A DNA stretch of 64,000 bases from Escherichia coli (GTDB taxonomy: Bacteria; Pseudomonadota; Gammaproteobacteria; Enterobacterales; Enterobacteriaceae): assembly GCF_003019035.1 (NCBI RefSeq), contig NZ_CP027447.1. One strand, written 5' to 3'. Positions 20,501-23,500 of the stretch are shown piece after piece. Made by a program: the position numbers. Within the stretch, counting starts at the first letter, position 1, and each line of letters opens with the position of its first letter.

Positions 20501-23500
20501 CTTCTTCATTTGGAGTAAACAGGCTGGCCTGAATGCGGGTGCTTTTCTTCTGATGGTCAATCACCATCAGCGTTTCAGCGAGATAAAAACAGAAATCAGG
20601 GCAGTTATTTTCCGCTGCCAGTTGCGGTAAATCTTCAAACCCCGCCACAAGGTCATAAGAGAACAGGCCGCCAAAGAACATCGCTTCCCGTTCTTCCTTC
20701 GGTACATTCAACAGATTCTGTAATAAGCGGAAAGCGTCAAAAACCGAAAGGGAGCATAAGCGGGCGTCTTCATCCAGCAATGGACTGACAGGGGGGAAGC
20801 GCAGCACGCGGCAGTTTGGTGATTGTTCATTTTCCACACCCGCAGGCAGGGCGTTATCCAGTAATGCCAACAGGGCTTCGCCATTGCCGGAAAGTGCCTG
20901 AATAGTGACAGTGTCACCTAATGCTGTAATGCGCAGCGCACTGTCCACTAGCAATAGACTTTTTAAATCATCTTTGCTGTCGATATCTGCGGATTCCAGC
21001 AGCAGCGTTGCCGGACGATCCCCACACAACTGGTGAAAAAGCGCAGTCGGGTTGTCGCGATAAGCGCCTTTGCAAGTTAGCAGTTCGAGAGTCGGTTTTT
21101 GTGTTTGCATTGTTATTCTCTAATTTTGTTCAAAAAAAAGCCCGCTCATTAGGCGGGCTGGGTATCTGATTGCTTTACGCATGGTGAATACACTGCCCGT
21201 TTCAGGAAGTGCGCCACCAACCTTTCAGTACGAAAATTGCTTTCATTGTCGATACCCTTTTTACGTGAACTTGCGTACTAGTTAACTAGTTCGATGATTA
21301 ATTGTCAACAGCTCATTTCAGAATATTTGCCAGAACCGTTATGATGTCGGCGCAAAAAACATTATCCAGAACGGGAGTGCGCCTTGAGCGACACGAATTA
21401 CGCAGTGATTTACGACCTGCACAGCCATACCACAGCTTCCGATGGCTGCCTGACGCCAGAAGCATTGGTGCGCCGTGCAGTCGAGATGCGCGTCGGCACC
21501 CTGGCGATCACCGACCATGACACCACAGCTGCAATCGCACCAGCAAGAGAGGAAATTTCACGTTCGGGACTGGCGCTGAATCTTATTCCCGGCGTGGAAA
21601 TTTCCACGGTCTGGGAAAATCATGAAATTCATATTGTCGGGCTGAATATTGATATTACTCATCCGCTAATGTGCGAGTTCCTCGCGCAGCAGACAGAACG
21701 GCGCAATCAGCGGGCGCAGCTGATTGCCGAAAGACTTGAAAAAGCGCAAATACCTCGGGCACTGGAAGGCGCGCAACGACTGGCGCAGGGCGGTGCGGTG
21801 ACGCGCGGTCATTTTGCGCGTTTCCTTGTGGAGTGCGGAAAAGCCAGTTCAATGGCGGATGTCTTTAAAAAGTATCTGGCGCGCGGGAAAACCGGATACG
21901 TTCCGCCACAGTGGTGTACAATAGAACAAGCTATTGATGTCATTCATCATTCTGGCGGTAAGGCGGTGCTAGCTCATCCTGGGCGGTACAATCTTAGTGC
22001 TAAATGGCTGAAAAGATTGGTTGCGCATTTTGCCGAACACCACGGCGACGCGATGGAAGTCGCGCAGTGCCAGCAATCGCCCAATGAACGCACCCAGCTG
22101 GCGACACTTGCGCGTCAGCATCATTTATGGGCATCACAAGGATCTGATTTTCATCAGCCATGCCCGTGGATCGAACTGGGTCGTAAACTCTGGCTGCCCG
22201 CAGGCGTTGAAGGCGTCTGGCAGCTATGGGAACAGCCGCAGAACACCACAGAGAGGGAATTATGAGCCAGTTTTTTTATATTCATCCTGATAACCCGCAG
22301 CAACGTCTGATCAACCAGGCGGTGGAGATCGTGCGTAAAGGCGGGGTGATTGTTTATCCAACTGATTCCGGCTATGCGCTCGGCTGTAAAATTGAAGATA
22401 AAAACGCGATGGAGCGTATTTGTCGTATTCGCCAGCTGCCGGACGGTCACAACTTTACCCTGATGTGTCGCGATCTTTCTGAACTCTCGACCTATTCATT
22501 TGTCGATAACGTTGCGTTTCGTTTAATGAAAAACAACACGCCGGGCAACTATACCTTCATCCTGAAGGGGACGAAGGAGGTGCCACGCCGTCTGTTGCAG
22601 GAAAAACGCAAAACAATCGGTATGCGTGTGCCGTCTAACCCGATTGCGCAGGCGTTGCTTGAAGCACTGGGCGAACCGATGCTTTCCACTTCGCTAATGC
22701 TGCCAGGCAGCGAATTTACCGAATCCGATCCCGAAGAAATTAAAGACCGTCTGGAAAAACAGGTAGATTTGATTATTCACGGCGGCTATCTCGGGCAGAA
22801 ACCAACAACGGTTATTGATCTTACCGATGATACGCCGGTCGTGGTGCGTGAAGGCGTAGGTGATGTGAAGCCTTTCTTATAACAAATTTCGTTCCACGGA
22901 TGGAAGATTATGGCAGGGATATATCGCTGCATTTTGCTGTTGATAGTTGGGCTTTTTTTCTCTTCGTTGAGTTATGCGAAAAACACGGAGATCCCTTCTT
23001 ATGAAGAAGGGATCTCGCTCTTTGATGTTGAAGCCACTCTGCAACCGGATGGGGTGCTCGACATCAAAGAAAATATTCATTTTCAGGCGCGAAATCAGCA
23101 GATTAAGCACGGATTTTATCGTGATTTACCACGACTCTGGATGCAGCCTGATGGGGACGCTGCACTGCTGAACTATCATATTGTTGGCGTCACCCGTGAT
23201 GGTATTCCTGAACCCTGGCATCTTGACTGGCATATCGGGTTAATGAGTATTGTCGTGGGCGATAAACAACGTTTCTTGCCTCAAGGCGACTATCATTATC
23301 AAATTCATTATCAGGTTAAAAATGCTTTCCTGCGTGAAGGGGATTCTGATCTGCTAATCTGGAACGTGACCGGTAACCACTGGCCGTTTGAAATTTATAA
23401 GACCCTATTTTCACTCAAGTTGCCTGATATTGCGGGTAATCCATTTAGCGAAATCGATCTCTTTACTGGAGAAGAGGGCGACACATATCGAAATGGCCGC

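Follow-up and report, generated by a model that had tools for sequence, protein, structure and literature searches.

We find that positions 21111 to 21310 of the window, by which we mean the whole 64,000-nucleotide stretch of Escherichia coli DNA analyzed here, are almost certainly the native chromosomal control region of trpLEDCBA, with the classical two-layer mechanism of regulation. The promoter, operator, leader and attenuator are present, ordered and spaced as in E. coli K-12 and identical to it in sequence, and the leader RNA is computed to form exclusive hairpins. A preliminary description of this DNA had named every one of these elements and had given the same range, which brackets the module exactly. 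It had left the strand unstated; the module lies on the minus strand (Table 1).

The module is a textbook one and already known. The value of the present account is one of bookkeeping, in that it fixes the strand and the exact coordinates.

Table 1. Positions of the trp control elements, the operon genes and the divergent neighbor in the window.
Feature	Position	Strand	Details
trp promoter -35 hexamer TTGACA	21303..21308	minus	Perfect sigma-70 consensus; identical to MG1655
trp promoter -10 hexamer TTAACT	21280..21285	minus	Within operator; identical to characterised K-12 promoter
TrpR operator CGAACTAGTTAACTAGTACG, 20 bp	21274..21293		Core ACTAGTTAACTAGT at 21277-21290; overlaps -10 hexamer
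Presumed transcription start +1, A of AAGUUCACG	21272	minus	Placed from K-12 knowledge
Shine-Dalgarno AAGGGU of trpL	21259-21254	minus	8 nt upstream of AUG
trpL leader peptide ORF	21202..21246	minus	ATG 21246, TGA 21202; 14 codons + stop; WP_001700591.1
Tandem Trp codons UGGUGG in trpL	21219-21214	minus
Hairpin 1:2	21179..21221	minus	Transcript nt 52-94; 5' arm includes Trp codons; -17.5 kcal/mol (ViennaRNA)
Antiterminator 2:3	21154..21199	minus	Transcript nt 74-119; -15.6 kcal/mol
Attenuator terminator 3:4	21132..21159	minus	Stem 21159-21139, then U8 21139-21132
Rfam RF00513 Trp_leader match	21132..21225	minus	Full model 1-100
rnm	21384-22265	plus	Upstream of module, divergent
trpE	19548-21110	minus	ATG 21110; 520 aa
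trpD	17953-19548	minus	531 aa
trpC(F)	16591-17952	minus	453 aa
trpB	15386-16579	minus	397 aa
trpA	14580-15386	minus	268 aa
Terminator-like hairpin GCCGCCAGTTCCGCTGGCGGC + ATTTTAACTT	14552..14572	minus	Just 3' of trpA, operon end

Promoter, operator and identity to K-12

The preliminary description had read a -35 TTGACA and a TrpR operator palindrome in this DNA, and both were located, the latter as a perfect 14-bp palindrome with zero mismatches to MG1655. The two promoter hexamers are separated by 17 bp, within the 16 to 18 bp of sigma-70 promoters. This arrangement occurs once in the window, against 0.37 occurrences expected with one mismatch allowed. The 14-bp operator palindrome also occurs once, against 0.09 expected even at two mismatches allowed. 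The operator has CTAG-containing half-sites, overlaps the promoter and is identical to that of K-12; from this identity, we infer that it is bound by TrpR. The trpR gene and the supply of tRNA-Trp are located beyond the 64-kb window. Transcription start, which we take to be the A at 21272 from the known K-12 start, is 7 nt 3' of the -10 hexamer; with this start, the leader preceding the trpE ATG has its classical length of 162 nt.

A generic scan for sigma-70 promoters did not call the trp promoter. The scan required at least four of six matches, plus an A as the second base of the -10 hexamer, and it missed the promoter because TTAACT fits TATAAT at only three of six positions. This limited fit is a known property of the trp promoter and is no defect. 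The promoter was located instead by its exact pattern and by its identity to K-12.

The check proposed with the preliminary description, alignment to the reference trp leader region, was run against MG1655 and returned no mismatch in either the operator or the terminator stem. We show that the entire 273-bp trpE-rnm intergenic region, from start codon to start codon, has 0 differences relative to MG1655 (NC_000913.3). Identity continues through the first 11 codons of trpE, with a synonymous change at codon 12 and E14K as the first differences. The control region sits within a run of 325 bp (21076-21400) that is free of differences from K-12. Its flanks are divergent: 4.35% for trpE (6% over the first 300 nt), 3.3% for trpD, 3.2% for trpC, 3.7% for both trpB and trpA, and 1.8% for rnm. 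Zero differences amid divergent flanks would fit a control region held constant by strong purifying selection.

The divergence extends over a broader block. From 13816 to 25886, from trp to yciQ, identity to K-12 is 96.7%, compared with 98.2 to 98.3% in the flanking blocks; yciQ itself is 5.1% divergent. Together with the absence of any difference in the control region inside it, this pattern suggests that the block was recombined and that its regulatory core is under strong constraint.

Leader RNA, attenuator and predicted regulation

The 14-codon leader with tandem Trp codons, as first described, is confirmed: trpL has 14 sense codons, with Trp at codons 10 and 11. In the PGAP annotation of the matching RefSeq record, these positions carry the labels trpL and “Trp leader region.” The GC-rich terminator and U-run were likewise read correctly, and consist of AGCCCGCCTAATGAGCGGGC followed by T8. 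This attenuator hairpin was also found by a terminator scan, with 7 pairs, of which 6 are G-C, followed by the T-run. It corresponds to transcript nt 114-134, with a fold energy of -14.0 kcal/mol. The terminator follows the leader ORF and precedes the first structural gene, with the U8 ending 21 nt before the trpE ATG.

The leader matches the Rfam family RF00513 (Trp_leader) with 93.1 bits, against a gathering score of 41, and with E = 1e-18 across the whole window. It is therefore a member of this family, and the alignment covers both the 1:2 and the 3:4 helices. With nt 1 at 21272, translation of trpL would begin at the AUG of nt 27, meet UGGUGG at nt 54-59 and stop at the UGA of nt 69-71; the U-run lies at nt 134-141. 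The minimum free energy (MFE) of the full leader is -49.8 kcal/mol, which is lower than that of all 200 of 200 dinucleotide shuffles (z = -3.9), and hairpin 1:2 is also seen in this full-leader fold. Nucleotides 74-94 are common to 1:2 and 2:3, while nt 115-119 are common to 2:3 and the 5' arm of the terminator. Because they share nucleotides, the three pairings are mutually exclusive. Computationally, then, the leader has the features of a ribosome-mediated attenuator: a leader ORF with its own Shine-Dalgarno sequence, clustered Trp codons, and pairings that exclude one another.

Folding reproduces all three hairpins. In a co-transcriptional snapshot of nt 71-125, with nt 1-70 covered, as they would be by a ribosome stalled at the Trp codons, and segment 4 not yet made, the 2:3 antiterminator forms. 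When nothing is blocked, 1:2 forms and segment 3 is freed for the terminator. The equilibrium MFE with nt 1-70 masked still favors the terminator, because MFE ignores the order of transcription. This equilibrium preference is in line with the classical model, which is kinetic and co-transcriptional.

Control of the E. coli trp operon has two layers, TrpR acting at the operator and attenuation mediated by TrpL (PMC13178558; PMC12612679). Applied to the window, initiation would be governed by a sigma-70 promoter overlapped by a palindromic TrpR operator, and because the two overlap, tryptophan-bound TrpR would block RNA polymerase. Transcripts that pass initiation would carry the 162-nt leader encoding the 14-residue TrpL, with its Trp codons at positions 10 and 11. 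Where charged tRNA-Trp is plentiful, the ribosome would reach the stop codon and keep segment 2 from segment 3. Segment 3 would then be free to form the 3:4 hairpin, which together with U8 would terminate transcription at about nt 140, upstream of trpE. Where tRNA-Trp is scarce, the ribosome would be expected to stall at UGGUGG in segment 1. The stalled ribosome would allow the 2:3 antiterminator to form, so that no terminator arises and polymerase enters trpE. Established knowledge of K-12 suggests that the start site, TrpR binding and the kinetics of ribosome coupling are probably as outlined here. Given a leader identical to that of K-12, tryptophan-dependent termination and read-through are also likely to occur in vivo.

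The leader might have an additional role, which is not a true rival to this mechanism. The terminated leader of ~140 nt (21272 to about 21133) could act in trans as the small RNA rnTrpL, in which case the RNA would have two functions, with trpL as its coding part. In E. coli, rnTrpL is reported to be an Hfq-dependent sRNA with targets including dnaA, sanA, and mhpC (PMC12612679). Those studies worked with the K-12 sequence, which the leader in the window matches exactly; any activity in trans would leave the cis mechanism in place. We consider the chances of such a role to be evenly balanced.

Native locus, competing explanations and the rest of the window

All five structural genes, trpEDCBA, are full length; their lengths equal those of MG1655, and they have no internal stops. 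The operon is intact and presumably normally regulated. From oppA to sapA, the window runs collinear with MG1655 1301733-1357103. In addition, it is the reverse complement of positions 2717366-2781365 of the E. coli SCU-301 chromosome (NZ_CP051751.1), with 63,999 of 64,000 bases matching.

These comparisons bear on two other ways of explaining the module. It could be a decayed, non-functional copy of a trp control region, or a chance resemblance to one. The one point in favor of this is the failure of the generic scan to call the promoter. Against it stand 100% identity to the experimentally characterized K-12 sequence, the Rfam E-value of 1e-18, and the intact trpEDCBA downstream. Changes known from other strains, namely an ACCAG operator, a U7 run and the leader peptide substitution G9A, are also absent. 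We reject a decayed or chance copy on the basis of the mismatch-free MG1655 alignment, and consider it extremely improbable.

The trp promoter is in wide use in vectors, and the 200-bp module, used as a query, also matches 6 places on plasmids. A possible alternative to the native locus is therefore a copy of the module that was engineered or is mobile, for example one in an expression-vector cassette or an insertion. However, the module occupies its native position between rnm and trpE, within a window that is collinear with the K-12 chromosome and that matches the chromosome of SCU-301, a commensal isolate, over its whole length. No vector or IS sequences flank the module, as judged from the window comparison and the annotation. 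A vector-borne copy is rejected on the grounds of this collinearity and chromosomal match, and we assign it a negligible probability. The native trp control region is the reading that we retain.

The preliminary description had offered the module as an internal control, arguing that its good preservation strengthens the case for deviations elsewhere in the window being real. The module is indeed intact, yet it is a weak control. Because the module is near-invariant across E. coli, finding it intact reveals little about other parts of the window. We caution that an ultra-conserved element of 200 bp is unsuited as evidence that unusual parts of a window are real. As a control for preservation, the sequence match of the whole window to SCU-301 is better. 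This match shows that the window's structural differences from K-12 belong to the SCU-301 assembly.

The sole base that differs from SCU-301 is at 16977, which is G in the window and C in NZ_CP051751.1. It changes codon 326 of trpC(F), a minus-strand gene, from GTG (Val) to CTG (Leu), giving V326L. The window's base is absent from about 5,400 complete E. coli genomes, among which the best match was 99.0% over 101 bp. The difference could be one of assembly version, an error, or an introduced change. That V326L is a real and functionally meaningful variant is very unlikely.

We also observed several departures from K-12 along the window. The gene yciF (about 13538-13930, minus strand) has a frameshifting deletion of ~104 bp when compared with K-12 and with virtually all other E. 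coli. The junction lies near 13816-13820 and has a one-piece match in SCU-301 only, where PGAP calls yciF a “frameshifted” pseudogene. A 1.57-kb two-gene cassette (25886-27452, plus strand) is located between rluB and cobO/btuR. K-12 lacks this cassette, and 919 of the 5426 complete genomes carry it. Its two ORFs encode 340 aa (26055-27077), with a lipoprotein-like signal sequence MIRYSGIFLSLLMLSGC, and 102 aa (27087-27395); neither had a match in Pfam, NCBIfam, or PADLOC. Between fabI and sapF, a 7.9-kb island (50830-58726) replaces the K-12 gene ycjD and is found in 2037 of the 5426 complete E. coli genomes. Its genes code for a TetR/AcrR regulator, for the adaptor, permease and outer-membrane factor of a tripartite RND pump, and for an MFS efflux pump. 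A further feature of the window is a match to the enterobacterial small RNA STnc180 (Rfam RF02079) at 35184-35396 on the plus strand, with 182.7 bits against a gathering score of 50. Located between cysB and acnA, this match overlies the ymiC / yciX-downstream region.

Natural variation and comparison with known systems

Of 5426 complete E. coli genomes, 5421 carry the 200-bp module; 5357 records match it at 99% identity or more, and it is annotated everywhere as trpL or the Trp leader region. Among 30 evenly spread matches, 16 were 100% identical. For a survey of variants, five of the more divergent strains were aligned to 21111-21310 of the window. Natural variants in these five comprise spacer changes, an A-to-G change in the terminator loop, a U7 run, and TrpL G9A. 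In strains Z142-6 and 139 (loci L007 and L008), the left half-site of the TrpR operator reads ACCAG, not ACTAG; Z142-6 also has TrpL G9A. The ACCAG operators may be naturally weakened ones. At all variant sites of the five aligned strains, the window has the reference allele.

The closest known system is that of MG1655, whose trp promoter-operator-trpL-attenuator (NC_000913.3, about 1322947-1323219; trpL is b1265) has the same bases, neighbors, and orientation, with no difference within the module. Relative to the enterobacterial Trp_leader family RF00513, the match is full length with both helices aligned. The only departures from the family consensus are gaps of 5 nt and 1 nt, both in unpaired regions, and neither is of note. 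The his, phe, thr, leu, and ilv leaders share the same logic: a short ORF rich in cognate codons, alternative hairpins, and an intrinsic terminator ahead of the first biosynthetic gene. Of these leaders, pheL is treated in PMC3082878. In contrast to these leaders, the trp leader has only two regulatory codons and is paired with a dedicated repressor, TrpR, that acts at initiation.

As in E. coli, the Bacillus subtilis trp leader responds to tryptophan by switching between an antiterminator and a terminator that precede trpE (PMC13178558). There, however, the sensor of tryptophan is the TRAP protein, which binds (G/U)AG repeats; no translating ribosome reads the signal, and no repressor acts on initiation (PMC13178558). 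The leader in the window is of the ribosome-read type, unlike the TRAP type of B. subtilis.
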